The notes under the pieces were generated by a model, which saw nothing but the letters and a program-made list of their open reading frames with translations, was not told where the DNA came from and made no database searches. Position numbers and translations under genes: made by a program. A stretch of 64,000 nucleotides of DNA from a phage, in sequence record PZ019084.1, one strand, 5' to 3'. Positions 1 to 33,568 of the stretch are shown one piece after another. Positions within the stretch are counted from its first letter, which is position 1. Every line of letters begins with the position of its first letter.

Positions 1-535
1 GAATATTGTCACGCTCTCCTCGCGCCATCCAATAAACAGGAACACTTAATATTTCACTCGCATGGTCGCAGTGGTGAGCAAGATCGTCAATATAACAAAT
101 CACGTTATATTTCTCTTTTGCCTTTTTAAATAACTCTTCTTTTGAAGAATCATGACCACACATCATTACTTCTGAGAAGGCACCAGGAAAAAGAGCATTC
201 AAATTAAATTGACGATTCAGCAGAGCGTCAATAGAATCACCCAATGCTGTAACAGCTACAAAATTATAATCTTCTTTTAATTTGTTAATTACACACAGGG
301 CATCTTTATATGGAGACAAGTAACGAATAAAATCTGATCGATTGTATTTTTCAATTAGCTTGACACCGAGTTCTTCATCGCAATTAAAGAGTTTACCTGG
401 AGAAATAAATTTCTCATCTTGGATCATTTTTAAAATATGTTCTAACGGAAGATTATATTTCTGAGCAAAATAAGGAAGGCCTGATTGCCAGCTTAAACAT
501 ACTCCATCAATATCAGTTAAAATAGTAGGCTTCAT
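1..535 (-). CDS. HAD-superfamily hydrolase-like protein; start codon at 535..533, C-terminus lies beyond the window start
   Basis: Hand translation from the ATG at 535..533 gives MKPTILTDIDGVCLSWQSGLPYF... with a DxDGV motif typical of HAD phosphatases. Frame is open to position 1. The ATG overlaps the stop of the upstream ORF (ATGA). Confidence 0.5.
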   Translation of the reverse strand, partial: MKPTILTDIDGVCLSWQSGLPYFAQKYNLPLEHILKMIQDEKFISPGKLFNCDEELGVKLIEKYNRSDFIRYLSPYKDALCVINKLKEDYNFVAVTALGDSIDALLNRQFNLNALFPGAFSEVMMCGHDSSKEELFKKAKEKYNVICYIDDLAHHCDHASEILSVPVYWMARGERDNI

Positions 536-996
536 AGAGAGTCTCTTAATAGATTTAACACATCAATAAATTCAGCTTCGGTTAGTATTGTATCATCTTT
601 TGTTAGACCACTAGCCATGCTGTGCTTCAAAACTTTTCCTTTCGAGGCTTGTAATGCATCGCGAAAGCCCTTGTTTTGGAACGCTGCTTCAAAATATGCA
701 TTTGTGTATAATTCTTTCCACGCCGGGGAATATCTTGAAAACGGAGTTCCAAGCCAGAAGAGGGTCCCACGGTCCTGAGCTCTAGCATAAGACCTTCCAG
801 CTTGTTGGGCGGCAAGCCCGGATAACCCAAATATACGACGTTGCTGTTCAACATTTTTCACCTTACATCCTTGGAGGAATCCTTCGAGACCTCCGAATTG
901 AATACCATCCATGACGAAAGGCCATTGGGCGAAATTACTTAATGCGCATGATGGCCATCTAAAATTGCTTCTTATCTCTAACTCAGACATTTTCAA
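532..996 (-). CDS. NADAR (YbiA/DUF1768-like) domain protein
   Basis: 154-aa ORF; the SNFAQWP..DG..E..Q..K block and C-terminal region align by eye with E. coli YbiA. Recognition from memory, no search run. Confidence 0.55.
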   Translation of the reverse strand: MKMSELEIRSNFRWPSCALSNFAQWPFVMDGIQFGGLEGFLQGCKVKNVEQQRRIFGLSGLAAQQAGRSYARAQDRGTLFWLGTPFSRYSPAWKELYTNAYFEAAFQNKGFRDALQASKGKVLKHSMASGLTKDDTILTEAEFIDVLNLLRDSL

Positions 997-1189
997 TACT
1001 TATAATTTCAACATCAGCCCAATGACCATAGCAAGGAAGACGAAATTCAACTGGCCAGTTAGGGTCCTTTTCTAATATAATAGACTGAACTTGTGGCTCT
1101 TCATATTCATCGGTATACGGACCTTTATACGTTACTTTATATGTGACCTTAATATACTGAATTCCAAAAATCTTATTAATTATATTCAT
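983..1189 (-). CDS. hypothetical early protein (30.x-region)
   Basis: 68-aa ORF in the tightly packed minus-strand early gene array with overlapping start/stop codons. Confidence 0.45.
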   Translation of the reverse strand: MNIINKIFGIQYIKVTYKVTYKGPYTDEYEEPQVQSIILEKDPNWPVEFRLPCYGHWADVEIISIENV

Positions 1190-1383
1190 ACTAATTCCTT
1201 TAATCCGTAAATAGGAGATAATTCATCGCCCATACGAAGGTCTTCATTTCCATCTACCCAGGAAACAATATAAGCCTCTTTTATTTGAATACCGCTCCAT
1301 TTAAATGGAGGTAGAACCTTAGAAATTAATCCAGGTATACCAACTCCCTTTAATTCAACAGTTTGACCTAAAAAGAATTTCAT
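1186..1383 (-). CDS. hypothetical early protein
   Basis: 65-aa ORF, stop/start overlap with neighbours. Confidence 0.45.
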   Translation of the reverse strand: MKFFLGQTVELKGVGIPGLISKVLPPFKWSGIQIKEAYIVSWVDGNEDLRMGDELSPIYGLKELV

Positions 1384-1670
1384 TAGAACCTCATCTGAAA
1401 ACCGTGCGATTTAACATTACCGCCGCCAATATCAGAAATGTTAATTTCACGCGCAATTGAAGGGTCAATGTCAATTTCACGATTGAGTTTAGTGATAGCT
1501 AAAGTATCGCGGCCATTTACAATACGGAACTCTAAAGGGCAGACTACATTAACATAGTTTTTAATCGATTCACTAGTAGGCTGCAAATGAGCAGGAAGGT
1601 CTTTAGGTGCCTTAGAGAAAACCACTTCACAGAAATTTTTGCGGGTATCAAAATAAGTAGTCATAAACAT
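1383..1670 (-). CDS. hypothetical early protein
   Basis: 95-aa ORF in the same early array. Confidence 0.5.
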   Translation of the reverse strand: MFMTTYFDTRKNFCEVVFSKAPKDLPAHLQPTSESIKNYVNVVCPLEFRIVNGRDTLAITKLNREIDIDPSIAREINISDIGGGNVKSHGFQMRF

Positions 1671-1711
1671 AGTATTTTCCTCAGTAAGGGGCCGAAGCCC
1701 CTCATTTTATT

Positions 1712-2077
1712 TTAAATATCAAATTCGTTAAGAACTACATCAAAGATTGCTTCAAGATGCTCAGGTTTAGCTCTGTTACTCAGAATATGACGAATCCAAG
1801 TTTTAACTAGAAGCTTACGATTAACGCCATTCCAGCAAGGATGAGTCCCTAAATCACGTTGACGGAAATCATCATCTAATGCGATTTTAAAAGAAGAACC
1901 TTCTTTCGTGATTGAAACCGTGATGCCATTTTCAAATCGCATATAAACGTAGTTAGGAGTCATATACTGTTCAATTTCGCATACTGATCCATTTTGATGT
2001 TTCCAAAGGCAGATAGTATCAATAGAACCTGCAATACCGTTAGAAACATATTTACGTTCAAAGTTGATGTAGTTCAT
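1712..2077 (-). CDS. hypothetical early protein
   Basis: 121-aa ORF; a GC hairpin (1690..1711) follows its stop. Confidence 0.5.
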   Translation of the reverse strand: MNYINFERKYVSNGIAGSIDTICLWKHQNGSVCEIEQYMTPNYVYMRFENGITVSITKEGSSFKIALDDDFRQRDLGTHPCWNGVNRKLLVKTWIRHILSNRAKPEHLEAIFDVVLNEFDI

Positions 2078-2147
2078 TTTTATTCTCCGAGATGTTTAAT
2101 TGCGGTACAGGTATATAATATCATATCCTGTACCAAAGTAAACTATT

Positions 2148-2516
2148 TTATGCAACTTTAATCCAATTATCTAAATTTAATTCACCTTTGGCTTTCATTT
2201 TTTCAATCAAGAGGTCAGCGGTAATACGACCATTTTGATACCACGTAACATCTTCAGAGTAACCAGTTTCTTTATCTTCATAAGTCTCACAGCGAATTTT
2301 ACCAAGAATCAAAGTTTTTAATTCGTATGTATCTCCAGTAAAAAAGTTAGTTAACATTATTTTCCAAGAGAAATCATCAGAAGGACCTTCAGGAGTCATA
2401 CAATCTACGAATTCAAATTGTTCTTTATATAAATGCCACTGAAGTTCTTTAGTTTCGATAGCTTTATAGCCGTCGTGATCTTTACCTTTGATGTATGAGT
2501 TAAGATTGATTTTCAT
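2148..2516 (-). CDS. hypothetical early protein
   Basis: 122-aa ORF preceded by an early promoter (2544..2573) and an AAGGAG Shine-Dalgarno. Confidence 0.55.
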   Translation of the reverse strand: MKINLNSYIKGKDHDGYKAIETKELQWHLYKEQFEFVDCMTPEGPSDDFSWKIMLTNFFTGDTYELKTLILGKIRCETYEDKETGYSEDVTWYQNGRITADLLIEKMKAKGELNLDNWIKVA

Positions 2517-2543
2517 TTTATTCTCCTTTGTTTGTGTAAGATA

Positions 2544-2573
2544 ATACTATCACAAAGGAACCATACTGTAAAC
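2544..2573 (-). promoter_or_regulatory. T4-type early promoter (-35 GTTTAC, 18-nt spacer, -10 TAGTAT)
   Basis: Minus strand reads GTTTAC..N18..TAGTAT immediately upstream of the 2516 start. Confidence 0.6.
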
Positions 2574-2593
2574 AACTTTGTGCAATCTTTGGA

Positions 2594-2625
2594 AAATAAA
2601 AAAAAAAGGACTCCCGAAGGAGTCC
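2594..2625 (-). terminator. rho-independent terminator (GGACUCC-CGAA-GGAGUCC hairpin plus U-run)
   Basis: Perfect 7-bp stem with CGAA loop followed on the minus strand by a run of about 10 U; located just after the stop of ORF 2631..2849. Confidence 0.7.
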
Positions 2626-2630
2626 TCAAC

Positions 2631-2849
2631 TTATGCTTTCTGCTTACCAAAACGAGAAGCATCATCTCGAAGAACCGCACGTGCTCGACGCATGATCTTC
2701 TCAACAGTTTGATTGATACGAGAGTTCGACCCACGCTTGTAGCCAGCGCGTTTAGAATCACCAACTTTCTTTTCAACTGCTTTCTTTGCTTTAACTTGTT
2801 TTGCCATTATAAATTCTCTTTTAAATGAAAATGCAGGACTTATTGGCAT
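2631..2849 (-). CDS. small lysine/arginine-rich basic protein (alternative start at 2807 gives 58 aa)
   Basis: 72-aa ORF, highly basic (MAKQVKAKKAVEKKVGDSKRAGYKRG...), terminator directly downstream. Confidence 0.5.
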   Translation of the reverse strand: MPISPAFSFKREFIMAKQVKAKKAVEKKVGDSKRAGYKRGSNSRINQTVEKIMRRARAVLRDDASRFGKQKA

Positions 2850-3203
2850 TGCCTGCGCAAGCCCTCAAGGGGAACATAGGTTTTGGATATTTAACGACAG
2901 GATAACCATAAACCCGTCATCATACCTTATAGCTCTTATCTGTTGCACACCGTTAGCTTAAAGGTTCCGGGTCCGATTTCTCGAGGATAAGATATATACT
3001 GATGGATATATAGGCCTTGAGGCGTACTCCCGATTGGCCATCACCTCGGGGTAGCATGCACTTGCCGCTATAAGAATAACATTCAAGAGGTACACCGTAA
3101 AACTGCCGGGGTCTTAAAACTATAATGATTCGCAAATCATTAATCAGACAGTTCGACGGCTCCTCGTTTTAACTTCACACTAAGGCAGTGACTCTCCAAT
3201 AAA

Positions 3204-3452
3204 TTACTTCAGTGTTACCACAAAGTGACGAACTGCTTTTCGTGCGGCAGAAGCCAAAGGCTTAGCATATTTAAGTTCATCTTTTTCCTGAAGCTCAGCA
3301 GCTAATGCAGTTTGAGCGGGATTCAGATGTTTGAAATAACGCAGGATTTCAAGAGCTTCGGCTTCAACATCAATAGATGCGCCATAGTTTTCGTGACCAT
3401 TATTCCATGCGTTTCGTTGCAGTTCAAGAGCGTGTTGTAATTGTTTAATCAT
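3204..3452 (-). CDS. rIII: rIII lysis-inhibition accessory protein
   Basis: 82 aa; sequence MIKQLQHALELQRNAWNNGHENYG... matches T4 rIII from memory, and sits next to gene 31 as in T4. Confidence 0.85.
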   Translation of the reverse strand: MIKQLQHALELQRNAWNNGHENYGASIDVEAEALEILRYFKHLNPAQTALAAELQEKDELKYAKPLASAARKAVRHFVVTLK

Positions 3453-3599
3453 TTAAAAATTCTCGTTAGAGATTAAAACTCGGTAGTCACGTTCTTCTGA
3501 ATTTCATCTTCTTTCGACAGATCTCTCAGTTGTAGACTACCACGTAGAATTGTTCGGTTAACTTATTATTCCGACACCCAATTCATATTATTATTTATA

Positions 3600-3935
3600 T
3601 CACTTATAAAGACACGGAATAGCTTTATAGTGACAGGTAACAAATTTTTGTTTAATTTCTTTTGGCTGCTTAAGACCCAGAGCTACAAAAGGATGCGGAA
3701 CGTTTCGAATTTGACCAACTGGAAGAGAAGTCAAATCACCAACTTCGCAGAAACCTTCAGGAACATCAGGACCAACAGAGTGAATTACACACAGTTCGGG
3801 AACTTCACCTTGAACACGTTTACCGATAATAAGTCCTGATTCTGTAACTTCTTCATCACCGGCTTGTGCAGGTTCAGAAACTAAAATAACATATTCACCG
3901 ACAGCACGAATTGGTAGCTGTTGTACTTCAGACAT
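3600..3935 (-). CDS. 31: gp31 co-chaperonin (GroES analogue for capsid folding)
   Basis: 111 aa, same length as T4 gp31; adjacent to rIII. Confidence 0.85.
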
Positions 3936-3991
3936 CGTTTTTCCTTTTTGTTAACAGATGAGTTAATAATAACAAATAATTCTTAAAGCAT

Positions 3992-4300
3992 TTATTTACC
4001 AATAAATTGAAGCAAATGCTCAACTTTCATACCATTAACGGAAATCAATTTGTTAATAGAAAAACCTCGCCATGCACCAAGTTCAACATCAAATACTGGA
4101 ATCATATCAGTAGATTCTTTCCGAGTAGATTCAGTCAATTTACCGGTTTGCATGGTTGGCATAAAGTCAGCATCGCGAGTACCTTTCATAGTACGAATAG
4201 TACCATCAGACTTTTCAAAAACCACGTTTGAAATACCCATGGACAATTTAGTTTTCAAAATTTCACGAATTGCTACTTTTTGTTCAGTCGTCAGTTTCAT
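3992..4300 (-). CDS. hypothetical early protein (31.1-like position)
   Basis: 102-aa ORF between gene 31 and cd. Confidence 0.5.
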   Translation of the reverse strand: MKLTTEQKVAIREILKTKLSMGISNVVFEKSDGTIRTMKGTRDADFMPTMQTGKLTESTRKESTDMIPVFDVELGAWRGFSINKLISVNGMKVEHLLQFIGK

Positions 4301-4537
4301 TTATTTACCTATTACAGTTTTAATATGGGTTGTTCCACGTTCTTTAAGAGTGGAAAGCAATTTTTGGCATTTTTCTAAATCAGATTTCCAACTATATGGT
4401 CTATCAATACAAACCCATTCTGACTTATAATACTGTTTCCATTTAGAGAAAAAATATTTCTTATACTCTACAGCAAATGAAATATTCTCATTAGAATAAG
4501 AACTAATTGCTGTGAGTTGTACCAAACGAAATTTCAT
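4301..4537 (-). CDS. hypothetical early protein (31.2-like position)
   Basis: 78-aa ORF, start overlaps upstream stop. Confidence 0.45.
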   Translation of the reverse strand: MKFRLVQLTAISSYSNENISFAVEYKKYFFSKWKQYYKSEWVCIDRPYSWKSDLEKCQKLLSTLKERGTTHIKTVIGK

Positions 4538-5118
4538 TATTCACCACAGAATTCGTTGATATTTTCCCAGTTTAACTTATTCAAGTTTTTCTTAGGAACA
4601 TTAAACACTTCAATACCTGCATTTCGCAGAATATCATCCCAGCCAGGTTTATTCTTATCGTATGTTTCGCAATAAACCAGCTTTTTAATTCCAGATTGAG
4701 CTATGGCTTTTGCACAATCTGGGCAAGGAGAAAGTGTTACATACATAGTAGCACCTTCAATTGAAGAACCGTTTCGCGCAGCAAACAAAATTGCATTTAG
4801 CTCAGCATGAATTTCATTTTTAGACGACCATTCAGAGTGAGCGCCGCGATGTTCTTTCGCCAAAACAAAACGATCAGTTGAACCAAACGATACACATTCG
4901 GGCTTATGACCTTGAATGATAGTATGTTTAGGTTTATTCAACAACCAACCTTGCTCGGCAGCATAATCGCAGCAGTTCACACCACCTGCCGGAGAACCAT
5001 TATATCCGGTAGAAATAATACGTCCATTCTTTTCAATTACTGCTCCTACCTTCCAGGAGCAACATTTGGATTCTTGTGATACTAAATATGCAATTTGAAG
5101 TACTGTACTCGCTTTCAT
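4537..5118 (-). CDS. cd: dCMP deaminase
   Basis: 193 aa, same as T4 Cd; zinc-binding cytidine-deaminase motifs HAE...PCPDC present. Confidence 0.9.
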   Translation of the reverse strand: MKASTVLQIAYLVSQESKCCSWKVGAVIEKNGRIISTGYNGSPAGGVNCCDYAAEQGWLLNKPKHTIIQGHKPECVSFGSTDRFVLAKEHRGAHSEWSSKNEIHAELNAILFAARNGSSIEGATMYVTLSPCPDCAKAIAQSGIKKLVYCETYDKNKPGWDDILRNAGIEVFNVPKKNLNKLNWENINEFCGE

Positions 5119-22494: not shown

Positions 22495-22502
22495 TATAAA
22501 TA
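22495..22502 (+). promoter_or_regulatory. late promoter TATAAATA for gene 34
   Basis: Exact TATAAATA 35 nt upstream of the gene 34 ATG; GGAG Shine-Dalgarno follows. Confidence 0.8.
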
Positions 22503-22536: not shown

Positions 22537-25500
22537 ATGGCCGAGATTAAAAGAAAGTTCAGAGCAGAAGATGGTCTGGACGCAGGTGGTGATAAAATAA
22601 TCAACGTAGCTTTAGCTGATCGTACCGTAGGAACTGACGGTGTTAACGTTGATTACTTAATTCAAGAAAATACAGTTCAACAATACGATCCAACTCGTGG
22701 ATATTTAAAAGATTTTGTAATCATTTATGATAACCGCTTTTGGGCTGCTATAAATGATATTCCAAAACCAGCAGGAGTTTTTAATAGCGGACGCTGGAGA
22801 GCATTACGTACGGACGCAAACTGGATTACGGTTTCATCTGGTTCATATCAATTAAAATCCGGTGAAGCAATTTCGGTTAACACTGCAGCTGGTAATGACA
22901 TCACGTTTACTTTACCGTCTTCTCCAATTGATGGTGATACTATCGTTCTCCAAGATATTGGAGGAAAACCTGGAGTTAACCAAGTTTTAATTGCAGCTTC
23001 AGTACAAAGTATTGTAAACTTTAGAGGTGAACAAGTACGTTCAGTACTAATGACTCATCCAAAGTCACAGTTAGTTTTAATTTTTAGTAATCGTCTGTGG
23101 CAAATGTATGTAGCTGATTATAGTAGAGAAGCTGTAGTTGTAACACCAGCGAATACTTATCAAGCGCAATCAAACGATTTTATCGTGCGTAGATTTACTT
23201 CTGCTGCACCGATAAATATTAAACTTCCGAGATTTGCTAATCACGGCGATATTATTAATTTCGTTGATTTAGATAAACTAAATCCGCTTTATCATACAAT
23301 TATTACTACATACGATGAAACTACTTCAATACAAGAAGATGGAACTCATTCAATTGAAGGCCGTACATCGATTGACGGTTTCTTGATGTATGATGATAAT
23401 GAGAAATTGTGGAGATTGTTTGACGGGGACAGTAAAGCACGTTTACGCATTATAACGACTAATTCAAACATTCGTCCAAATGAAGAAGTCATGGTATTTG
23501 GTGCGAATAACGGAAAAGCTCAGACAATTGAACTTCAGCTTCCAACTAATATTTCTGTTGGTGATACTGTTAAAATTTCCATGAATTACATGAGAAAAGG
23601 ACAAACAGTTAAAATCAAAGCTGCCGGTGAAGATAAAATTGCTTCTTCAGTTCAATTACTGCAATTCCCAAAACGCTCAGAATATCCGCCTGAAGCTGAA
23701 TGGGTGACTGTTCAAGAATTAGTTTTTAACGGTGAAACTAATTATGTTCCAGTTTTACAACTTGCTTATATAGAAGATTCTGACGGAAAATACTGGGTTG
23801 TACAGCAAAACGTTCCAACCGTAGAAAGAGTAGATTCTTTAAATGATTCTACTAGAGCAAGATTAGGCGTAATTGCTTTAGCTACACAAGCTCAAGCTAA
23901 TGCCGATTTAGAAAATTCTCCACAAAAAGAATTAGCAATTACTCCAGAAACATTAGCTAACCGTACTGCTACAGAAACTCGTAGAGGTATCGCAAGAATA
24001 GCAACTACTGCTCAAGTGAATCAGAACACTACATTCTCTTTTGCTGATGATATTATCATCACTCCTAAAAAGCTGAATGAAAGAACTGCCACAGAAACTC
24101 GTAGAGGTGTTGCTGAAATTGCTACGCAGCAGGAAACTAATGCAGGTACTGATGATACTACAATCATCACTCCTAAAAAGCTTCAAGCTCGTCAAGGTTC
24201 TGAATCATTATCTGGTATTGTAACCTTTGTATCTACTGCAGGAGCTACTCCAGCTTCTAGTCGTGAATTAAATGGTACAAACGTTTATAATAAAAACACT
24301 AATAATTTAGTTGTTTCGCCTAAAGCTCTGGATCAGTATAAAGCTACTCCAACACAACAAGGTGCAGTAATTTTAGCAGTTGAAAGTGAAGTAATTGCTG
24401 GAAAAAGTCAAGAAGGATGGGCAAATGCTGTTGTAACGCCAGAAACGTTACATAAAAAGACATCAACTGATGGAAGAATTGGTTTAATTGAAATTGCTAC
24501 GCAAAGTGAAGTTAATACAGGAACTGATTATACTCGTGCAGTCACTCCTAAAACTTTAAATGACCGTAAAGCAACTGAAAGTTTAAGTGGTATAGCTGAA
24601 ATTGCTACACAAGTTGAATTCGACGCAGGCGTCGACGATACTCGTATCTCTACACCATTAAAAATTAAAACTAGATTTAATAGTACTGATCGTACTTCTG
24701 TTGTTGCTCTATCTGGATTAGTTGAATCAGGAACTCTCTGGGACCATTATACCCTTAATATTCTTGAAGCAAATGAGACACAGCGTGGTACACTTCGTGT
24801 AGCTACACAGGTTGAAGCTGCTGCAGGAACATTGGATAATGTTTTAATAACTCCTAAAAAGCTTTTAGGTACTAAATCTACCGAATCGCAAGAAGGTGTT
24901 ATTAAAGTTGCAACTCAGTCTGAAACTGTGACTGGAACGTCAGCAAATACTGCTGTATCTCCAAAAAATTTAAAATGGATTGTGCAGAGTGAACCTACTT
25001 GGGCAGCTACTACTGCGATAAGAGGCTTTGTTAAAACTTCATCTGGTTCAATTACATTCGTTGGTAATGATACAGTTGGTTCAACCCAGTCATTAGAATT
25101 ATACGAGAAAAATAGCTATGCAGTATCACCATATGAATTAAACCGTGTATTAGCAAATTATTTGCCGTTAAAAGCAAAAGCCGCTGACGCAAATTTATTA
25201 GATGGTCTAGATTCATCTCAATTCATTCGTAGGGATATTGCACAGACAGTTAATGGTTCACTAACCTTAACCCAACAAACGAATCTGAGTGCCCCTCTTG
25301 TATCATCTAGTACTGCTACGTTTGGTGGATCAGTTTCGGCAAACAGCACATTAACTATTTCTAATACTGGAACAGCAACTCGTCTGATTTTTGAGAAAGG
25401 ACCTCAAACTGGAACTAACCCAGTACAGACGATGACTATCAGAGTTTGGGGAAATCAGTTCGGTGGCGGTTCAGATACAACACGTTCTACTGTATTTGAA

Positions 25501-26406
25501 GTTGGTGATGAAACGTCTAATCACTTTTATTCTCAACGCAATAAAGCTGGGAATATAACGTTTAGTATCAATGGTACTGTAATGCCAATAAATGTTAATG
25601 CTTCGGGTTCTTTGAATGCGAACGGCGTTGCAACATTTGGTAGTTCAGTTACAGCCAATGGTGAATTCATCAGCAAGTCTGCAAATGCTTTCAGAGCAAT
25701 AAATGGCGATTATGGATTCTTTATTCGCAATGATGCTGCTAACACCCATTTTATGCTTACTGCATCGGGTGATCAGACTGGCGGATTTAATGGATTACGT
25801 CCTTTAGCTATTAATAATGCATCTGGTCAAGTAACGATTGGTGAAAGCTTAATCATTGCCAAAGGTGCTACTATAAATTCAGGTGGTTTAACTGTTAACT
25901 CGAGAATTCGTTCTCAGGGCACTAAAACATCTGACTTATATACCCGTGCGCCAACATCTGATACTATAGGATTCTGGTCAATCGATATTAATGATTCAGC
26001 TACTTATAACCAGTTCCCAGGTTATTTTAAAATGGTTGAAAAAACTAATGAAGTGACTGGACTTCCATACTTAGAACGTGGTGAAGAAGTTAAATCTCCT
26101 GGTACATTGACTCAGTTTGGTAACACACTTGATTCGCTTTACCAAGATTGGATTACTTATCCAACGACTCCAGAAGCACGTACCACTCGCTGGACGCGTA
26201 CATGGCAGAAAACCAAAAACTCTTGGTCGAGTTTTGTTCAGGTATTTGACGGAGGTAACCCTCCACAACCATCTGATATCGGTGCTTTACCATCTGATAA
26301 TGCTACAATGGGGAATCTTACTATTCGTGATTTCTTACGAATTGGTAATGTTCGCATTGTTCCTGACCCAGTGAATAAAACGGTTAAATTTGAATGGGTT
26401 GAATAA
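22537..26406 (+). CDS. 34: gp34 long tail fibre proximal subunit
   Basis: 1289 aa, identical length to T4 gp34; internal repeats of the ITPKKL...TETRRG...IATQ motif. Confidence 0.95.
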   Translation: MAEIKRKFRAEDGLDAGGDKIINVALADRTVGTDGVNVDYLIQENTVQQYDPTRGYLKDFVIIYDNRFWAAINDIPKPAGVFNSGRWRALRTDANWITVSSGSYQLKSGEAISVNTAAGNDITFTLPSSPIDGDTIVLQDIGGKPGVNQVLIAASVQSIVNFRGEQVRSVLMTHPKSQLVLIFSNRLWQMYVADYSREAVVVTPANTYQAQSNDFIVRRFTSAAPINIKLPRFANHGDIINFVDLDKLNPLYHTIITTYDETTSIQEDGTHSIEGRTSIDGFLMYDDNEKLWRLFDGDSKARLRIITTNSNIRPNEEVMVFGANNGKAQTIELQLPTNISVGDTVKISMNYMRKGQTVKIKAAGEDKIASSVQLLQFPKRSEYPPEAEWVTVQELVFNGETNYVPVLQLAYIEDSDGKYWVVQQNVPTVERVDSLNDSTRARLGVIALATQAQANADLENSPQKELAITPETLANRTATETRRGIARIATTAQVNQNTTFSFADDIIITPKKLNERTATETRRGVAEIATQQETNAGTDDTTIITPKKLQARQGSESLSGIVTFVSTAGATPASSRELNGTNVYNKNTNNLVVSPKALDQYKATPTQQGAVILAVESEVIAGKSQEGWANAVVTPETLHKKTSTDGRIGLIEIATQSEVNTGTDYTRAVTPKTLNDRKATESLSGIAEIATQVEFDAGVDDTRISTPLKIKTRFNSTDRTSVVALSGLVESGTLWDHYTLNILEANETQRGTLRVATQVEAAAGTLDNVLITPKKLLGTKSTESQEGVIKVATQSETVTGTSANTAVSPKNLKWIVQSEPTWAATTAIRGFVKTSSGSITFVGNDTVGSTQSLELYEKNSYAVSPYELNRVLANYLPLKAKAADANLLDGLDSSQFIRRDIAQTVNGSLTLTQQTNLSAPLVSSSTATFGGSVSANSTLTISNTGTATRLIFEKGPQTGTNPVQTMTIRVWGNQFGGGSDTTRSTVFEVGDETSNHFYSQRNKAGNITFSINGTVMPINVNASGSLNANGVATFGSSVTANGEFISKSANAFRAINGDYGFFIRNDAANTHFMLTASGDQTGGFNGLRPLAINNASGQVTIGESLIIAKGATINSGGLTVNSRIRSQGTKTSDLYTRAPTSDTIGFWSIDINDSATYNQFPGYFKMVEKTNEVTGLPYLERGEEVKSPGTLTQFGNTLDSLYQDWITYPTTPEARTTRWTRTWQKTKNSWSSFVQVFDGGNPPQPSDIGALPSDNATMGNLTIRDFLRIGNVRIVPDPVNKTVKFEWVE

Positions 26407-26414
26407 GAGGTATT

Positions 26415-27530
26415 ATGGAAAAATTTATGGCAGAGTTTGGACAAGGATACGTCCAAACGCCATTTTTATCGGAAAGTAATTCAGTAAGATACAAAATAAG
26501 CATAGCGGGTTCTTGCCCGCTTTCTACAGCAGGACCGTACGTTAAATTTCAAGATAATCCTGTTGGAAGCCAAACATTTAGCGCAGGACTTCATTTAAGA
26601 GTTTTTGACCCTTCCACCGGAGCATTAGTTGATAGTAAGTCATATGCTTTTTCGTCTTCAAATGATACTACATCAGCTGCTTTTGTTAGTTTCATGAATT
26701 CTTTGACGAATAATAGACTTGTTGCTATATTAACTAACGGAAAAGTTAATTTTCCTCCTGAAGTAGTGTCTTGGTTAAGAGCCGCAGGAACGGCTGCTTT
26801 TCCATCTGATTCTATATTGTCAAGATTCGACGTATCATATGCTGCTTTTTATACTTCTTCTAAAAGAGTTATCGCGTTAGAGCATGTTAAACTAAGTAAT
26901 AGAAAAAGCACAGATGATTATCAAACTATTTTAGATGTTGTATTTGATAGTTTAGAAGACGTTGGAGCTACCGGGTTTCCAAGAAGAACGTATGAAAGCG
27001 TTAAGCAATTCATGTCAGCGGTTGGTGGAACTAATAATGAAATTGCACGTTTTCCAACTTCAGCTGCTATAAGCAAACTCTCTGATTATAATTTAGTTCC
27101 TGGTGATGTTCTTTATCTTAAAGCTCAGTTATATGCTGATGCGGATTTACTTGCGCTTGGAACCACAAATATATCCATCCGTTTTTATAATGCATCTAAT
27201 GGATATATTTCTTCAACACAAGCTGAGTTCACCGGACAAGCTGGGTCTTGGGAATTAAAGGAAGATTATGTAGTTGTTCCAGAAAACGCTGTGGGATTTA
27301 CGATATACGCACAAAGAACTGCACAAGCTGGTCAAGGTGGCATGAGAAATTTAAGCTTTTCTGAAGTGTCAAGAAATGGAGGTATTTCGAAACCTGCTGA
27401 ATTTGGCGTCAATGGCATTCGTGTTAATTATATCTGTGAATCTGCTTCACCTCCGGATATAATGGTACTTCCTACGCAAGCATCGTCTAAAACTGGTAAA
27501 GTGTTTGGACAAGAATTTAGAGAAGTATAA
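26415..27530 (+). CDS. 35: gp35 long tail fibre hinge protein
   Basis: 371 aa versus 372 in T4, in the conserved position. Confidence 0.85.
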   Translation: MEKFMAEFGQGYVQTPFLSESNSVRYKISIAGSCPLSTAGPYVKFQDNPVGSQTFSAGLHLRVFDPSTGALVDSKSYAFSSSNDTTSAAFVSFMNSLTNNRLVAILTNGKVNFPPEVVSWLRAAGTAAFPSDSILSRFDVSYAAFYTSSKRVIALEHVKLSNRKSTDDYQTILDVVFDSLEDVGATGFPRRTYESVKQFMSAVGGTNNEIARFPTSAAISKLSDYNLVPGDVLYLKAQLYADADLLALGTTNISIRFYNASNGYISSTQAEFTGQAGSWELKEDYVVVPENAVGFTIYAQRTAQAGQGGMRNLSFSEVSRNGGISKPAEFGVNGIRVNYICESASPPDIMVLPTQASSKTGKVFGQEFREV

Positions 27531-27535
27531 ATTGA

Positions 27536-27562
27536 GGGAGCCTTCGGGTTCCCTTTTTCTTT
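27536..27562 (+). terminator. rho-independent terminator after gene 35
   Basis: GGGAGCC-UUCG-GGUUCCC hairpin followed by UUUUUCUUU. Confidence 0.65.
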
Positions 27563-27569
27563 ATAAATA
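27562..27569 (+). promoter_or_regulatory. late promoter TATAAATA for gene 36
   Basis: Exact TATAAATA 24 nt upstream of the gene 36 ATG. Confidence 0.75.
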
Positions 27570-27592: not shown

Positions 27593-28258
27593 ATGGCTGA
27601 TTTAAAAGTAGGTTCAACAACCGGAGGCTCTGTCATTTGGCATCAAGGAAATTTTCCATTGAATCCAGCCGGTGACGATGTACTCTATAAATCATTTAAA
27701 ATATATTCAGAATACAATAAACCACAAGCTGTTGATAACGATTTTGTTTCTAAAGCTAATGGTGGTACTTATGCATCAAAGGTAACATTTAACGGTGGCG
27801 TTCAAGTCCCATATGCTGTAAACAATACAAACCCATGCGGTATTTATCCAGGTAACGGTGATAATGCTACTTTTGCTGTGGCGAATATTGACATCGTTTC
27901 GTGGAATGGTATTGGTTTTAAATCATCACAAGGTTCAGCAGACCGAACTGTTGTAATTAATGCACGTAATGGTGATATTAGTACAAAAGGCGTTGTGACA
28001 GCAGTAGGTCAAATACGAAGTAATGCAGTTTCTCCTGTAGCAGCGAATGACCTTACTAGAAAGGACTATGTTGATGGAGCAATAAATACTGTTACGGCAA
28101 ATGCGAACTCTAGAGTGTTACGATCTGGTGACACTATGATTGGTAATTTAACCGCACCAAACTTTTTCTCGCAGAATCCTGCATCTCAACCTTCACATGT
28201 TCCGCGATTTGACCAAATCGTAATTAAGGATTCTGTTCAAGATTTCGGCTATTATTAA
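27593..28258 (+). CDS. 36: gp36 long tail fibre distal connector
   Basis: 221 aa, same as T4 gp36. Confidence 0.9.
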   Translation: MADLKVGSTTGGSVIWHQGNFPLNPAGDDVLYKSFKIYSEYNKPQAVDNDFVSKANGGTYASKVTFNGGVQVPYAVNNTNPCGIYPGNGDNATFAVANIDIVSWNGIGFKSSQGSADRTVVINARNGDISTKGVVTAVGQIRSNAVSPVAANDLTRKDYVDGAINTVTANANSRVLRSGDTMIGNLTAPNFFSQNPASQPSHVPRFDQIVIKDSVQDFGYY

Positions 28259-28266
28259 GAGGACTT

Positions 28267-31200
28267 ATGGCTACTTTAAAACAAATACAATTTAAAAGAA
28301 GCAAAACCGCAGGTGCACGTCCTGCTGCTTCAGTATTAGCCGAAGGTGAATTGGCTATAAACTTAAAAGATAGAACAATTTTTACTAAAGACGATTTAGG
28401 AAATATCATTGATCTGGGTTTTGCTAAAGGCGGGCAGGTTGATGGAAATATCACTCAAACTGGTGATTATTTACAAAATGGAACATATAATCTTAATGGA
28501 AACCAGTTTGTTTATGCAGGAAAATATATTGAATTTTTACCTAAAACAGCTGGTAATGGCGCTTGGGCAAATCAACACCTAAATAAAGCCCCTATCTTTA
28601 CAGATTTAAGTTCAACTACTTCTACTTCAGAATACCATCCGCTAATTAAGCAGCGTTATAAAGATGGGACTTTTTCTGTTGGCACGTTAGTAAACGAAGG
28701 AAGTTTTAAAATTCATTATATCGATGAAACCGGCGATTCGAAATATTGGACGTTTCGACGTGACGGTGGATTTGTTGTTGATGCAGGAAGTTTAACAGTA
28801 ACAAAAGGAAATATTTCTGCTTCTGGTAATATTAATTCAGCTACTGGGATAGTTTCTGCTCCACAGATTAATACAAAAACTATAGTTTTTGATACAAAAG
28901 CATTCGGACAATATGATTCACAATCATTAGTTCAATATGTTTATCCTGGAACAGGTGAAGAAAATGGTATAAACTATCTTCGTAAAGTTCGAGCTAAATC
29001 AGGCGGAACTATTTACCATGAAATTGCTTCTGCGCAGACCGGTAAGAATGATGAAATTTCTTGGTGGACCGGAAACTCGCTTACCACTAAATTAATGGGT
29101 CTTCGTAATGATGGCGCAATGGTATTACGTCGTTCGCTTGCTATTGGCACAATTACCACTGATGAAAATACCAATAACTATGGCTCTCCTACTCCAATGG
29201 GAGAAAGATATATTGCTTTGGGTGATGCTGCAACCGGTTTAAAATATATTAAGCAAGGTGTTTATGATTTGGTAGGTAATTGGAATTCTGTTGCTTCTAT
29301 TACTCCTGATAGTTTCCGTAGTACTCGCAAAGGTTTATTTGGACGTTCAGAAGACCAAGGCGCTACATGGAACATGCCTGGAAACAACGCCGCGCTTTTA
29401 TCGGTTCAAACACAAGCTGATGGAAACACTGCTGGTGACGGTCAAACCCACATTGGATATAATTCTGGCGGTAAAATGAACCATTATTTCCGTGGTACAG
29501 GTCAGATGAATATCAATACCCAACAAGGTATGGAAGTTAACCCGGGTATTTTGAAATTGGTAACCGGTGCTAACAGTATTAGCTTTAATGCCGCAACTGG
29601 AAATATTAATTCTACATTAGCTTTTCGTCTTAATAAAGGCATAATTATTGATGGATCTGATAATCAGGGATTCCAGTTTAACGCCCCGACGGCTGCAGAT
29701 GGTACTAGAAGTATATACTGGAATAGTGGTACTCGCGAAGGTCAAAACAAAAACCCTGTTACAGTTAAAGTGTGGGGTAATTCATTTAATGCCAGCGGTG
29801 GAACAGATAGACAAACTGTATTTGAAGTTTCTGACTCTCAAGGATATTATTTTTATGCTCAACGCACTACTCCTGCATCAGGTCAAACAGTAGGTCCGGT
29901 TAACTTTAAATTTAACGGAACTGTTGAAACAGGCCATATCATAGGCCTTGGAAATATAAGTGCCTCCGGTACAGGTTCTTTTGGTGGCAATGTTACCATG
30001 TCTAACGGTTTGTTTGTCCAAGGTGGTTCTTCTATTACTGGACAAGTTAAAATAGGCGGAACTGCTGATGCATTAAGAATTTGGAATGCTGAATACGGTG
30101 CTATTTTCCGTCGTTCAGAAAGTAATCTTTATATTATCCCGACTCCTAAAGATGCTGGAGAATCAGGTGGTATAAGTAATCTTAGACCATTTATAATAGA
30201 ACTGAACACTGGCACGGTTAAAATGTCGCATGATGTTCATTTAGGAGATTCCGGATCTGGTACAGGATTATTACAAGTAAGTAATAGTCTTAAAACTATT
30301 AAAATGATATGTCCAGTAACTATTAATGAACGTAATGCAGCGCTTACTCTAGATTCTCCTTCATCTTCTTCTGCTAATTATTTGCAGGGTTCTAAAGCTG
30401 GAACTAGATCGTGGTATGTTGGTCTTGGTGGTGCTGGAAATGATTTATCACTTTATAGCCAATCTTATGGACATGGTCTTGTTATAAGTGATAATTTCGT
30501 GTCAATCACTAAACCCTTTAAAGTCGGAAATGCCCAACTAGGAACTGACGGTAATATTACCAACGGTTCTGGTAATTTTGCTAACTTAAACACCACGCTA
30601 AATCGTAAAGTTAATTCTGGATTTATTACTTATGGAGCAACTGCTGGATGGTATAAGTTTGCAACAGTAACAATGCCACAATCCACTTCAACAGTCTTCT
30701 TTAAAATAGTTGGAGGTTCTGGATTTAATAGCGGAATATTCACCCAATGTAATATTGCTGAAATTGTTTTACGTACTAGTAATGAAAGACCTTCTGACTT
30801 AAATGCTGTATTATACACAAGAACAACTGGAATGTATAGCGCAGCATTTAGAAATATTGCAGTTAACAATGTCTCTGGAGATACATATGACATTTATGTT
30901 TATGCCGGAACATATTGTAATCAACTAGTTTGTGAATGGTCATGTACCGAAAATGCTACTGTTAGCGTTATTGGTATTAACTCATCTACGCAGTCGCCTG
31001 TGGATGCTCTTCCAGATACAGCAGTTGATGGGCAAGTTGCTAATGTTCTTAATAACTTGGTTGATCGTGGTAAAGTTAAGCGTTATGAAGCTGATTCTGA
31101 AATAGCTATCAATAGTCAAACTGGTATTCGTATTAAAAGCAATGGCGATAAAACTGGTTCTGTTGCTACAATGCTACGAAATGATGGCGGTAGTTTTTAT

Positions 31201-32055
31201 ATTCTATTTACAGATAAAAATGCCACCGATGGTGAAGCAACTGTTAACGGTGATTGGAATAGTAAGCGTCCTTTCGCAATTAACTTAACAACCGGCGAAG
31301 TACTAATGAATAATGGCATAGCTGTTCGCAGCGCAGCTTTATTCTATGATAGTATAAATGTCAAAGATAATGGTTCTATTAACTTTGATAAGTCTGGTGC
31401 TAACCCGAGAAATATGAGAATATTTCATGCTGGCGATGCTTCTCGCGGTAACCGCATTGAAATTGCAGATGAAACTAACTATATTGCTTACTTTGAAAAA
31501 ACTCCAGGTGGAGCTAACCGCTTTGTAGTAAATAATGCTACTATAGCTGGTGTTAACCAAATGAATTCATTTGGTATTAATATCAATAACGCACTTGGTG
31601 GAAATAGTATAGCATTTGGTGATAATGATACTGGAATTAAACAATCCGGTGACGGAATTCTTGATATCATTACTAACGCCGCACGCAGAATGAGATTCCA
31701 AACAGGTGACACCTATTCTGACATGAATATAAATGCCCCAAACGTTTATATTCGTTCTGATATTCGTTTGAAATCTAATTTCAGACCTATTGAAAATGCT
31801 CTTGAAAAGGTTGAACAGCTTGATGGTTTAATCTATGATAAAGCTGACTATATAGGCGGTGAAATTGTTCAGACTGAAGCGGGTATTGTGGCTCAAACAC
31901 TGCAAGATGTTTTACCAGAAGCAGTTCGTGAAGTTGAAGATATTAAGGGTAATAAAATACTCACTGTTTCTTCTCAATCCCAGATTGCTCTTCTAGTTGA
32001 AGCTGTGAAAACACTTTCTGCTCGTGTAAAAGAACTTGAATCTAAACTTATGTAA
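28267..32055 (+). CDS. 37: gp37 long tail fibre distal subunit with C-terminal intramolecular chaperone domain (about 31756..32052)
   Basis: 1262 aa; conserved N-terminal fibre region, then a C-terminal S-D-I-R-L-K motif followed by about 99 aa resembling the self-cleaving chaperone of endosialidase-type fibres. Confidence 0.9.
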   Translation: MATLKQIQFKRSKTAGARPAASVLAEGELAINLKDRTIFTKDDLGNIIDLGFAKGGQVDGNITQTGDYLQNGTYNLNGNQFVYAGKYIEFLPKTAGNGAWANQHLNKAPIFTDLSSTTSTSEYHPLIKQRYKDGTFSVGTLVNEGSFKIHYIDETGDSKYWTFRRDGGFVVDAGSLTVTKGNISASGNINSATGIVSAPQINTKTIVFDTKAFGQYDSQSLVQYVYPGTGEENGINYLRKVRAKSGGTIYHEIASAQTGKNDEISWWTGNSLTTKLMGLRNDGAMVLRRSLAIGTITTDENTNNYGSPTPMGERYIALGDAATGLKYIKQGVYDLVGNWNSVASITPDSFRSTRKGLFGRSEDQGATWNMPGNNAALLSVQTQADGNTAGDGQTHIGYNSGGKMNHYFRGTGQMNINTQQGMEVNPGILKLVTGANSISFNAATGNINSTLAFRLNKGIIIDGSDNQGFQFNAPTAADGTRSIYWNSGTREGQNKNPVTVKVWGNSFNASGGTDRQTVFEVSDSQGYYFYAQRTTPASGQTVGPVNFKFNGTVETGHIIGLGNISASGTGSFGGNVTMSNGLFVQGGSSITGQVKIGGTADALRIWNAEYGAIFRRSESNLYIIPTPKDAGESGGISNLRPFIIELNTGTVKMSHDVHLGDSGSGTGLLQVSNSLKTIKMICPVTINERNAALTLDSPSSSSANYLQGSKAGTRSWYVGLGGAGNDLSLYSQSYGHGLVISDNFVSITKPFKVGNAQLGTDGNITNGSGNFANLNTTLNRKVNSGFITYGATAGWYKFATVTMPQSTSTVFFKIVGGSGFNSGIFTQCNIAEIVLRTSNERPSDLNAVLYTRTTGMYSAAFRNIAVNNVSGDTYDIYVYAGTYCNQLVCEWSCTENATVSVIGINSSTQSPVDALPDTAVDGQVANVLNNLVDRGKVKRYEADSEIAINSQTGIRIKSNGDKTGSVATMLRNDGGSFYILFTDKNATDGEATVNGDWNSKRPFAINLTTGEVLMNNGIAVRSAALFYDSINVKDNGSINFDKSGANPRNMRIFHAGDASRGNRIEIADETNYIAYFEKTPGGANRFVVNNATIAGVNQMNSFGININNALGGNSIAFGDNDTGIKQSGDGILDIITNAARRMRFQTGDTYSDMNINAPNVYIRSDIRLKSNFRPIENALEKVEQLDGLIYDKADYIGGEIVQTEAGIVAQTLQDVLPEAVREVEDIKGNKILTVSSQSQIALLVEAVKTLSARVKELESKLM

Positions 32056-32056
32056 A

Positions 32057-32074
32057 AGAGGGCTTCGGCCCTCT
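32057..32074 (+). other. GC hairpin (AGAGGGC-UUCG-GCCCUCU) between genes 37 and 38
   Basis: Perfect 7-bp stem with UUCG loop; weak U-run, so more likely a partial terminator or RNA stability element. Confidence 0.45.
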
Positions 32075-32085
32075 AAGGATTTTTA

Positions 32086-32880
32086 ATGGCAATTGTAGGT
32101 GTTCCTGGCTGGATTGGTGAATCTGCCGTGAATGAAACTGGACAACGTTGGATGGATGCTGCAATGAAAGCAGTTCGTGTTTCAGTTCCTGGCTGGATGA
32201 GCTCAATGGCTGGGCAATCTAAAGAAGTATATTACAGTATTGGTGCTAGCAATTCTTATAATAAAGACACACTAATAAATTATCTCAAATCTCAAGGTAG
32301 TACTCCTGTTGTTGTTACTATTACTGGTAACTTAGTTTCTTCATCTGCAAGGCAACCTTGCTTAGATTTTCCTAGCTCATTAACTAATGCTTATGTAACG
32401 CTTATTATAAATGGCGGTGTAACAGTATACGGTCGCGGAGGACGCGGCGCGCAAGCGGGAAACCAGGCGGGTGAAGCTGGTGGTACTGCAATTAACAATG
32501 GTATAGGTACTCGTCTACGAATCACTAACAATGGAGCAATCGCCGGCGGCGGAGGTGGTGGTGGCGCCCAATCAACTGATAATGGGTGGGGAGGTAAATA
32601 TGTTTCTGGCGGGGGCGGCGGACGTCCTTTCGGAGCTGGTGGTAATAATGGAGCAAAAGCTCCGGGTGCATCAGCATCTTTAACATCTCCAGGCGCAGGC
32701 GGAAAAATGTATTCCGGCGTTGGATACTACGGCGGTGACGGTGGTAATGTTGGTGAACGAGGTAAGGATGCGGTTAGATTGAACGGCTATTCGAACTCAC
32801 CTGGCGCAGCAGGTAAAGCTGTTACTGGTAACGCACCAACTTGGACTAAAGTTGGTACAATATATGGTTCAAGAGTATAA
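32086..32880 (+). CDS. 38: gp38 receptor-binding adhesin, T2 type with glycine-rich motifs
   Basis: 264 aa with several poly-Gly blocks (GGGGGGGAQS, GGGGGRPFGAGG, GGDGGN) separating variable segments. T4 gp38 is a 183-aa chaperone instead. Confidence 0.8.
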   Translation: MAIVGVPGWIGESAVNETGQRWMDAAMKAVRVSVPGWMSSMAGQSKEVYYSIGASNSYNKDTLINYLKSQGSTPVVVTITGNLVSSSARQPCLDFPSSLTNAYVTLIINGGVTVYGRGGRGAQAGNQAGEAGGTAINNGIGTRLRITNNGAIAGGGGGGGAQSTDNGWGGKYVSGGGGGRPFGAGGNNGAKAPGASASLTSPGAGGKMYSGVGYYGGDGGNVGERGKDAVRLNGYSNSPGAAGKAVTGNAPTWTKVGTIYGSRV

Positions 32881-32911: not shown

Positions 32912-33568
32912 ATGGCAGCACCTAGAATATCATTTTCGCCCTCTGATATTCTGTTGGGTGTTCTAGATCGCTTATTCAAAGATAACGCTACCGGGAAGGT
33001 TCTTGCTTCCCGAGTAGCTGTCGTAATTCTTTTATTTATGATGGCGATTGTTTGGTATAGGGGAGATAGTTTCTTTGAGTACTATAAGCAATCAAAGTAT
33101 GAAACATACAGTGAAATTATTGAAAAGGAAAGAAACGCACGCTTTGAATCTGTCGCCCTGGAACAACTCCAGATAGTTCACATATCATCTGAGGCAGACT
33201 TTAGTGCGGTGTATTCTTTCCGCCCTAAAAACTTAAACTATTTTGTTGATATTATAGCATATGAAGGAAAATTACCTTCAACAATAAGTGAAAAATCACT
33301 TGGAGGATATCCTGTTGATAAAACTATGGATGAATATACAGTTCATTTAAATGGACGTCATTATTATTCCAACTCAAAATTTGCTTTTTTACCAACTAAA
33401 AAGCCTACTCCCGAAATAAATTACATGTACAGTTGTCCATATTTTAATTTGGATAACATCTATGCTGGAACAATAACCATGTACTGGTATAGAAATGATC
33501 ATATAAGTAATGACCGCCTTGAATCAATATGTTCTCAGGCGGCCAGAATATTAGGAAGGGCTAAATAA
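32912..33568 (+). CDS. t: holin T
   Basis: 218 aa; MAAPRISFSPSDILLGVLDRLFKDN... with a single transmembrane segment, matching T4 T. Confidence 0.9.
   Translation: MAAPRISFSPSDILLGVLDRLFKDNATGKVLASRVAVVILLFMMAIVWYRGDSFFEYYKQSKYETYSEIIEKERNARFESVALEQLQIVHISSEADFSAVYSFRPKNLNYFVDIIAYEGKLPSTISEKSLGGYPVDKTMDEYTVHLNGRHYYSNSKFAFLPTKKPTPEINYMYSCPYFNLDNIYAGTITMYWYRNDHISNDRLESICSQAARILGRAK

Follow-up and report, generated by a model that had tools for sequence, protein, structure and literature searches.

Positions 28267–32880 of a 64,000-nucleotide stretch of phage DNA (sequence record PZ019084.1; the whole stretch is termed the window below) carry the genes g37 and g38 and constitute, with a probability of roughly 0.9, the receptor-recognition locus of a T2-like Tequatrovirus, i.e., a module composed of a distal long tail fibre and an adhesin. 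Both genes lie on the plus strand—g37 at 28267..32055, encoding 1262 amino acids (aa), and g38 at 32086..32880, encoding 264 aa—and are embedded in the gene order g34-g35-g36-g37-g38-t. In the proposed mechanism, the 1262-aa gp37 precursor would trimerise to form the distal half-fibre, with the 99 C-terminal residues serving as an intramolecular chaperone of the Peptidase_S74 type. Once folding is complete, Ser1164 and Lys1169 would cleave the polypeptide between Arg1163 and Ser1164, releasing the chaperone and baring a tip that ends in NVYIR. A single gp38 would dock onto this trimeric tip via residues 1–42 with their tryptophans Trp9, Trp22, and Trp37 and, by analogy with relatives, be carried in the virion at a gp38:gp37 ratio of 1:3. 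The C-terminal domain of gp38 is expected to form a polyglycine-II sandwich of glycine-rich motifs displaying five variable loops (residues 122–127, 164–173, 187–192, 207–214, and 230–236), which would bind OmpC of Shigella/E. coli-type hosts in a reversible first adsorption step that sets the host range. No evidence contradicting the assignment of the module was met. Its architecture, cleavage, adhesin fold, and receptor logic have all been described already in T2, S16, PP01, and Sf22; the locus is a textbook module.

An initial annotation of this DNA had classified the locus as T2-type and had given lengths of 1262 aa for gp37 (1026 aa in T4) and 264 aa for gp38. Both open reading frames are exactly as stated there, T4 gp37 does comprise 1026 aa, and the classification is borne out by comparison with T4 and T2. 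BLASTP detects no similarity between gp38 and T4 gp38 (183 aa; best E 0.81 over 5 residues). T4 gp37 aligns at 49% identity up to approximately residue 830 of the protein described here, the last ~430 residues finding nothing significant in this alignment, and no chain named as a T4 gp37 tip was among the hits when full-length gp37 was searched against PDB sequences. The T4 RefSeq record states that the 'gp38' of the T2 subfamily is unrelated to T4 gp38 and is an adhesin. A T4-type arrangement, with the adhesin residing in the gp37 C-terminus and gp38 acting as a mere chaperone, is ruled out by these comparisons of both proteins with T4. With T2, the archetype of such modules (FadL/OmpF), the locus shares its architecture, the junction NVYIR^SDIRLK (^ denoting the cut site), the 99-aa tail, and the gp38 attachment subtype. 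Despite this relatedness, several differences exist: T2 gp37 comprises 1341 aa and is 62% identical, and the C-terminal domain of T2 gp38 is 57% identical, with other loops and another receptor.

Family, fold, and variable loops of gp38

The description of gp38 in the initial annotation as an adhesin in which poly-glycine motifs separate hypervariable segments agrees with the alignments and with the predicted fold. The models of PF05268 (245 bits, cut-off 25, model positions 1–218 of 218) and PF21721 Gp38_N (64.7 bits, model positions 1–40 of 40, residues 1–42 of gp38) are matched in full, and the protein is assigned to phrog_2056 'tail fiber protein; host specificity'. Glycine accounts for 22% of all residues and for 32% of residues 110–264, with runs at G154–160 (G7) and G175–179 (G5). 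In an alignment of 57 gp38 sequences, invariance is largely confined to the glycine blocks and to W9 and W22, and no residue holds a majority in the segments in between. A large protein search with gp38 yielded 158 homologues, hardly any of them filed under a telling phage name. Many gp38 homologues are filed in NCBI as bacterial 'receptor-recognizing protein'—from E. coli, Enterobacter, Salmonella, and even Bacillus cereus—and some of these bacteria-labelled entries reside on contigs of up to ~1.1 Mb, which may reflect phage contamination or mis-binned contigs.

The N-terminal attachment domain (residues 1–42; 32086..32211, plus strand) corresponds to PF21721 and harbors Trp9, Trp22, and Trp37; conserved gp38 tryptophans have been described as prongs inserting into gp37 (PMC7917993). 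The N-terminus, MAIVGVPGWIGES..., is common to T2 and is paired here with the NVYIR tip of gp37 that is common to T2 and K3. Lock-and-key pairing of gp38 N-terminal subtypes with gp37 C-terminal subtypes is known from earlier work (PMC3157838). The receptor-binding domain (residues 110–264; 32413..32877, plus strand), consisting of the predicted polyglycine-II sandwich and the loops, is 100% identical to that of Sf22.

Sequence searches of the PDB match gp38 to two entries only, 9V85 (E 6e-56) and 6F45_D (E 3e-45). An AlphaFold2 model computed from the 57-sequence alignment reached a mean predicted local distance difference test score (pLDDT) of 89 and a predicted template modelling score of 0.84. 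In a Foldseek search of the PDB at E<=0.001, this model finds solely the same two entries, 9V85 (TM-score 0.93, root-mean-square deviation 2.0 A) and 6F45_D (TM-score 0.86; TM-scores normalised to the solved chain). In the latter entry, the gp37–gp38 complex of phage S16, three chains of gp37 accompany a single gp38 chain, as would be expected if each trimeric tip bore one adhesin. S16 serves as the structural template for autocleavage, for one gp38 per gp37 trimer, and for the polyglycine-II sandwich. It differs from the present module in that its gp38 is 42% identical by structural alignment, its 113-aa chaperone is cleaved at S^SDRRIKK, and the sequence preceding the cut is unrelated.

Confidence of the gp38 model drops in the blocks 121–130, 161–170, and 231–240, which overlap the loops mapped from PP01; the lowest block (pLDDT 64) coincides with loop B. 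The equivalent of loop A (aa 122–127, AQAGNQ; 32449..32466, plus strand as for all five loops) was mapped from PP01 loop A (W119–I124). Loop B (aa 164–173, TDNGWGGKYV; 32575..32604) is identical to its PP01 counterpart at 6 of 10 positions and keeps the equivalents of PP01 K168 and Y169. Loop C (aa 187–192, NNGAKA; 32644..32661) is followed by loop D (aa 207–214, KMYSGVGY; 32704..32727), which carries a 2-residue insertion relative to PP01 and keeps the G-Y pair. Loop E (aa 230–236, VRLNGYS; 32773..32793) retains the equivalent of PP01 Tyr230 and has Asn in place of PP01 Ala228. That variable segments of gp38 govern host range, as the initial annotation assumed when it termed the locus host-range-determining and placed receptor specificity in these segments, is established in the literature (PMC3157838; PMC12032242; PMC12892980; bioRxiv 10.64898/2026.04.02.716166).

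Receptor assignment

Sequence comparison suggests that gp38 probably recognizes OmpC, an assignment for which the near-identity of gp38 to the adhesins of Sf22 and KRT47 is decisive and which also draws on its resemblance to the PP01 adhesin at the level of the loops. Overall, gp38 is 99.6% identical to that of Shigella phage Sf22 and 99.2% identical to those of KRT47, CrRp10, ime09, and ECP2301. The sole difference from Sf22, K28/R, is located in the attachment domain; residues 110–264 are identical. PMC12892980, with reference to Tinney et al. (2022, BBA Biomembranes 1864:183920), reports resistance of ompC mutants to Sf22 and KRT47, as well as poorer adsorption of both phages when Shigella OmpC is mutated in loops 5 and 7. 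The second line of evidence comes from PDB entry 9V85, which is PP01 gp38 (100% identity); this adhesin binds OmpC of E. coli O157 (PMC12892980).

An alignment to adhesins of known specificity, as recommended in the initial annotation, was carried out with a reference panel of phages whose receptors have been assigned experimentally (Table S1 of bioRxiv 10.64898/2026.04.02.716166). It left the matter undecided at the level of identity and pointed to OmpC at the level of the loops, in line with the near-identity to Sf22 and KRT47. Over its first 109 residues, gp38 is 89–92% identical to the panel adhesins specific for Tsx (except T6) and OmpA and 73% identical to T2 (FadL). For residues 110–264, identity amounts to 57–62% with the Tsx (except T6), OmpA, and FadL references, to 47–50% with T6 (Tsx) and the OmpF references, and to 63% with PP01 (OmpC). 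Since the values for the C-terminal domain are alike for Tsx, OmpA, FadL, and OmpC references, overall identity is uninformative with respect to the receptor. In its loops, gp38 comes closest, among adhesins whose specificity is known, to PP01; the likeness concerns loop B (TDNGWGGKYV vs QANNWAGKYV), loop C (NNGAKA vs NNGARW), and part of loop D. The Tsx, OmpA, OmpF, and FadL references have different loops throughout, which cannot be aligned with loops B, C, and D. PP01 gp38 shares the fold and presumably the receptor class and comes nearest in loops B, C, and D, whereas its attachment domain is T6-like (N-terminal 109 residues 39% identical) and its loops A and E differ.

Several points weigh against OmpC. 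Within the C-terminal domain, the 63% identity to PP01 barely exceeds the 62% identity to the OmpA-type adhesin of PaulHMueller. The evidence for OmpC dependence of Sf22 and KRT47 is known through citation only, and the cited work concerns Shigella OmpC and phages with a different gp37 (Sf22 gp37 is 71% identical overall). Of the PP01 residues that matter for binding to OmpC of O157, K168, Y169, G208, Y209, and Y230 are kept in gp38, whereas Y159, Q161, and A228 are changed to Q, T, and N, respectively. In PP01, Y159A, A228D, or deletion of A228 abolished infection (PMC12892980), and gp38 has Gln and Asn, respectively, at these two positions. In detail, its contacts must therefore be other than those of PP01, and the PP01 contact model is not simply transferable.

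It is unlikely, given the Sf22-identical receptor-binding domain, that the module functions as described with a primary receptor other than OmpC, be it OmpA, Tsx, OmpF, FadL, a lipopolysaccharide (LPS) sugar, or a dual receptor. Such a receptor would be compatible with the 89–92% identity of the N-terminal 109 residues to Tsx- and OmpA-type adhesins and with the nearly equal C-domain identities to PaulHMueller and PP01. Moreover, a single substitution can turn gp38 from OmpF to OmpW (bioRxiv 10.64898/2026.04.02.716166), and PP01 K168/Y169, proposed contacts to LPS sugars (PMC12892980), are kept as K171/Y172. However, the receptor-binding domain matches that of Sf22 at every residue, and both Sf22 and KRT47 are, by way of the same citation, reportedly dependent on OmpC; the only difference from Sf22 lies in the attachment domain, and the loops of Tsx, OmpA, OmpF, and FadL references differ throughout.

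Fibre shaft, tip, and C-terminal chaperone of gp37

Over its whole length, gp37 is assigned to phrog_1699 'long tail fiber protein distal subunit' (1054 bits), and three Pfam domains are found above threshold: Gp34_trimer, gp37_trimer, and Peptidase_S74. The Peptidase_S74 'chaperone of endosialidase' model (PF13884) matches residues 1164–1221 in full (51.5 bits vs a cut-off of 22, E 1.2e-13, model positions 1–58 of 58). In this family, a Ser/Lys pair—Ser at the cut site and Lys five residues downstream—constitutes the catalytic dyad. The motif SDIRLK occurs once in gp37, at residues 1164–1169, and residues 1164–1262 (31756..32052, plus strand) would represent a C-terminal intramolecular chaperone with a predicted cut at Arg1163/Ser1164 and Ser1164 and Lys1169 as putative catalytic residues. 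This domain occupies the extreme C-terminus of the distal fibre subunit, i.e., the last 99 of 1262 residues. The likeness to the endosialidase chaperone noted in the initial annotation is upheld by the family match. Its further statement that SDIRLK is followed by about 99 residues holds for the motif and for the 99-aa tail, but the motif opens the 99 residues (Ser1164–Met1262, the size of the predicted released fragment) and leaves 93 after Lys1169. As in endosialidase-type chaperones, the full model is matched, Ser-x4-Lys stands at the start, and the domain forms the C-terminal end of a trimeric fibre; unlike these, it resides on a T-even fibre shaft rather than on a sialidase or tailspike.

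The cut-site region is highly conserved. The junction NAPNVYIR^SDIRLK is the same in T2, K3, Sf22, RB18, and nine more phages, and S-[DE]-x-R-x-K followed by a tail of 99–113 aa is present in 17 of the 17 gp37 sequences compared, including the divergent ones of T6, PP01, and Mosigvirus. PP01 gp37, for example, is 29% identical and differs in having a 111-aa chaperone and the cut site VYVR^SDIRVK. The C-terminal 160 residues of gp37 align with S16 gp37 (6F45_A) across the SDRRIK site, with E 3e-10 when the tip is included. In S16, the last 113 residues of gp37 act as an intramolecular chaperone that is autocleaved at DLNVS^SDRRIKK, baring the docking surface for gp38, and the same cleavage has been predicted at DVYIR^SDGRLKI of Yersinia T-even phages (PMC7917993). 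Processing of gp37 in T2 and T6 is reported in PMC3157838, which cites Drexler et al. 1986 for T2. Because motif and junction are intact and the relatives S16 and T2 have been reported to be processed, there is a strong case that gp37 of this phage would likewise be cleaved at Arg1163/Ser1164. The self-cleaving domain claimed in the initial annotation is supported by the PF13884 match, the Ser-x4-Lys present in all 17 gp37 sequences, and homology to the autocleaving S16 gp37.

On the other side of the balance, a single-sequence AlphaFold2 model of residues 1112–1262 (pLDDT 43, all helices) proved unusable and leaves the chaperone fold unconfirmed. The 99-aa tail alone gives weak matches to 6F45_A (E 0.039) and to a myelin regulatory factor chain, 7DC3 (E 0.019), and a pairwise PDB sequence search produced no direct match of the gp37 chaperone to endosialidase chains. 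Retention of the 99 C-terminal residues in the virion as an uncleaved folding aid, with gp38 acting solely as an assembly factor as in T4, is nevertheless very improbable: 'distal long tail fiber assembly catalyst' is indeed the name that several database records give to homologues of gp38, but the S74 Ser and Lys and the cut-site context are intact and the same as in T2, for which the literature (PMC3157838) records gp37 processing, and gp38 has an adhesin fold and is unrelated to the T4 chaperone of the same name, as the T4 RefSeq record also says.

Upstream of the predicted cut, residues 1106–1163 (31582..31755, plus strand) constitute the distal tip of the mature fibre, ending in ...NAPNVYIR, and align with S16 gp37 (6F45_A). 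They are predicted, by analogy, to form the docking surface for gp38 after release of the chaperone; the equivalent DVYIR strand has been described as the gp38 docking tip (PMC7917993). At the opposite end, residues 1–50 (28267..28416, plus strand) form a conserved N-terminus that shows 88–98% identity with each of the 16 gp37 sequences in the comparison, otherwise divergent ones among them, and by analogy with T4 would be the junction to gp36. The shaft in between contains a homologue of the C-terminal trimerisation domain of gp34 (residues 480–658; 29704..30240, plus strand). PF21446 Gp34_trimer matches residues 511–644 (E 8.6e-10), and the region matches gp34 chains of PDB entries 4UXE, 5NXF, and 9X3R (E ~1e-15). 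Residues 693–767 (30343..30567, plus strand), the 'gp37 trimerisation region' (PF20744 gp37_trimer, residues 693–765, E 4e-11), resemble solved 'TAIL FIBER PROTEIN' chains of PDB entries 4A0T/4A0U (E ~1e-6), which we take to be T7 gp17. The proximal and the distal half-fibre therefore have fibre domains in common, apparently also with another phage group.

Mosaic origin and genomic surroundings of the locus

A segment-wise comparison shows gp37 to be pieced together from stretches that also occur in other phages. While residues 1–50 are universal, residues 51–200 are closest to slur07/NR1/SA20RB, residues 201–400 to PaulHMueller/RB18/T2, residues 501–600 again to slur07/NR1/SA20RB, residues 601–1100 to Sf22/RB18/SP21535/SA20RB, and residues 1101–1250 to slur07/SA20RB (96–100%). 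Residues 401–500 have no good match in the panel, and residues 451–500 reach <=48% identity to any of its members; a new segment is ruled out at 451–500, as this part is 84–93% identical to other Tequatrovirus gp37 proteins such as that of pEK20. Sf22 and KRT47 share the gene order of the locus, and gp37 residues 601–1050 are 94–100% identical to Sf22; in contrast, residues 51–600 and 1051–1250 differ from it. The tip–chaperone subtype is likewise that of slur07/SA20RB (SDMNIN...SNFRPIEN), where Sf22 has SYKNIN...SNFKPIEN. The gp37 entry of Shigella phage JK38 (MK962755.1, 301–4792) is annotated as two overlapping coding sequences, 301–3021 and 3008–4792, a sign of either a frameshift or a sequencing mistake in this entry.

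At the nucleotide level, positions 31400–32240 follow slur07/SA20RB (91–100% per 60-nucleotide bin) and positions 32240–32840 follow Sf22 (98–100% in all bins but one, which has 91%). The switch between the lineages falls in a region that runs from the conserved chaperone end across the intergenic spacer into the 5′ portion of g38. Tip and chaperone therefore derive from a lineage whose gp38 has other loops, and the adhesin derives from the Sf22 lineage. Such exchange is a known evolutionary mode of the g37–g38 locus (PMC3157838). Compared with 50,697 phage records, the g37–g38 stretch has no close match (best 88% identity over 91% of the query), so that this phage is not among them, and a collection of 15 billion protein sequences contains an exact copy of neither gp37 nor gp38. 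What is unrecorded is the exact allele combination only; every segment has close relatives. That this recombinant—a slur07/SA20RB-type tip and chaperone joined to a K28 variant of the Sf22-type OmpC adhesin, on a shaft from at least five donor lineages—adsorbs in a manner unpredictable from either parent appears doubtful. If it did so, docking strength of gp38 or length or flexibility of the fibre may be changed, or a second contact, to an LPS sugar, may be made via K171/Y172.

The 24 kb surrounding the locus are 94–96% identical at the nucleotide level to many Tequatrovirus genomes. Upstream lie g34 (22537–26406, 1289 aa), g35 (26415–27530), which encodes the fibre hinge protein, and g36 (27593–28258; Pfam Phage_T4_gp36); the holin gene t (32912–33568; Pfam Phage_holin_T) follows g38. 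Beyond t begins a block of minus-strand open reading frames, at positions annotated in related records as asiA, arn, motA, and the gene-52 topoisomerase subunit. Residues 58–116 of gp35 match Pfam PF15711 'ILEI, interleukin-like EMT inducer' (34.3 bits vs a curated threshold of 27, E 3.5e-8), an unexpected family for a phage hinge protein. Searches of the window for tRNAs and Rfam families found none.

The octamer TATAAATA, which resembles a T4-type late promoter, is present just 5′ of g36 (27562..27569, plus strand) and, as a second copy, just 5′ of g34 (22495–22502, plus strand). An exact-match scan of the plus strand between 21000 and 34000 found these two copies only and none directly before g37 or g38; g36, g37, and g38 would therefore form one late transcription unit, the transcript probably starting at the copy at 27562. 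G+C content climbs from ~0.37 to 0.48 over the 3′ half of g38, presumably because of its many GGN glycine codons.

The two genes of the locus are separated by a hairpin, AGAGGGC-UUCG-GCCCUCU (32057..32074, plus strand), with a 7-bp stem, a UUCG loop, and a minimum-free-energy structure of -13.4 kcal/mol. It is placed between the stop codon of g37 (32053–32055) and the Shine-Dalgarno sequence AAGGA of g38, which starts at 32086. A 61-nucleotide stretch containing the hairpin has a folding z-score of just -0.66 against shuffled sequences. A hairpin is present at the same site in every relative examined, with varying stems—AAGGGGC/GCCCCUU in T6, GAGGGGC/GCCCCUU in PP01, and AGGGCC/GGCCCU in AugustSocin—and with a CGAA loop in SholemSchwarzbard; differing stems at a constant site look like conservation of structure. 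The K3 record X04747 (1987) annotates the hairpin as a potential terminator. Candidate roles are that of a terminator, protection of mRNA ends, or setting of the gp37:gp38 ratio, any of which it may fulfil.

As the locus decides which bacteria can be adsorbed, it is the part of the genome to read or to swap for prediction or engineering of host range. For this phage, the prediction would be that adsorption depends on OmpC and that the host range resembles that of Sf22, KRT47, CrRp10, and ime09, i.e., Shigella, E. coli, and Citrobacter rodentium.

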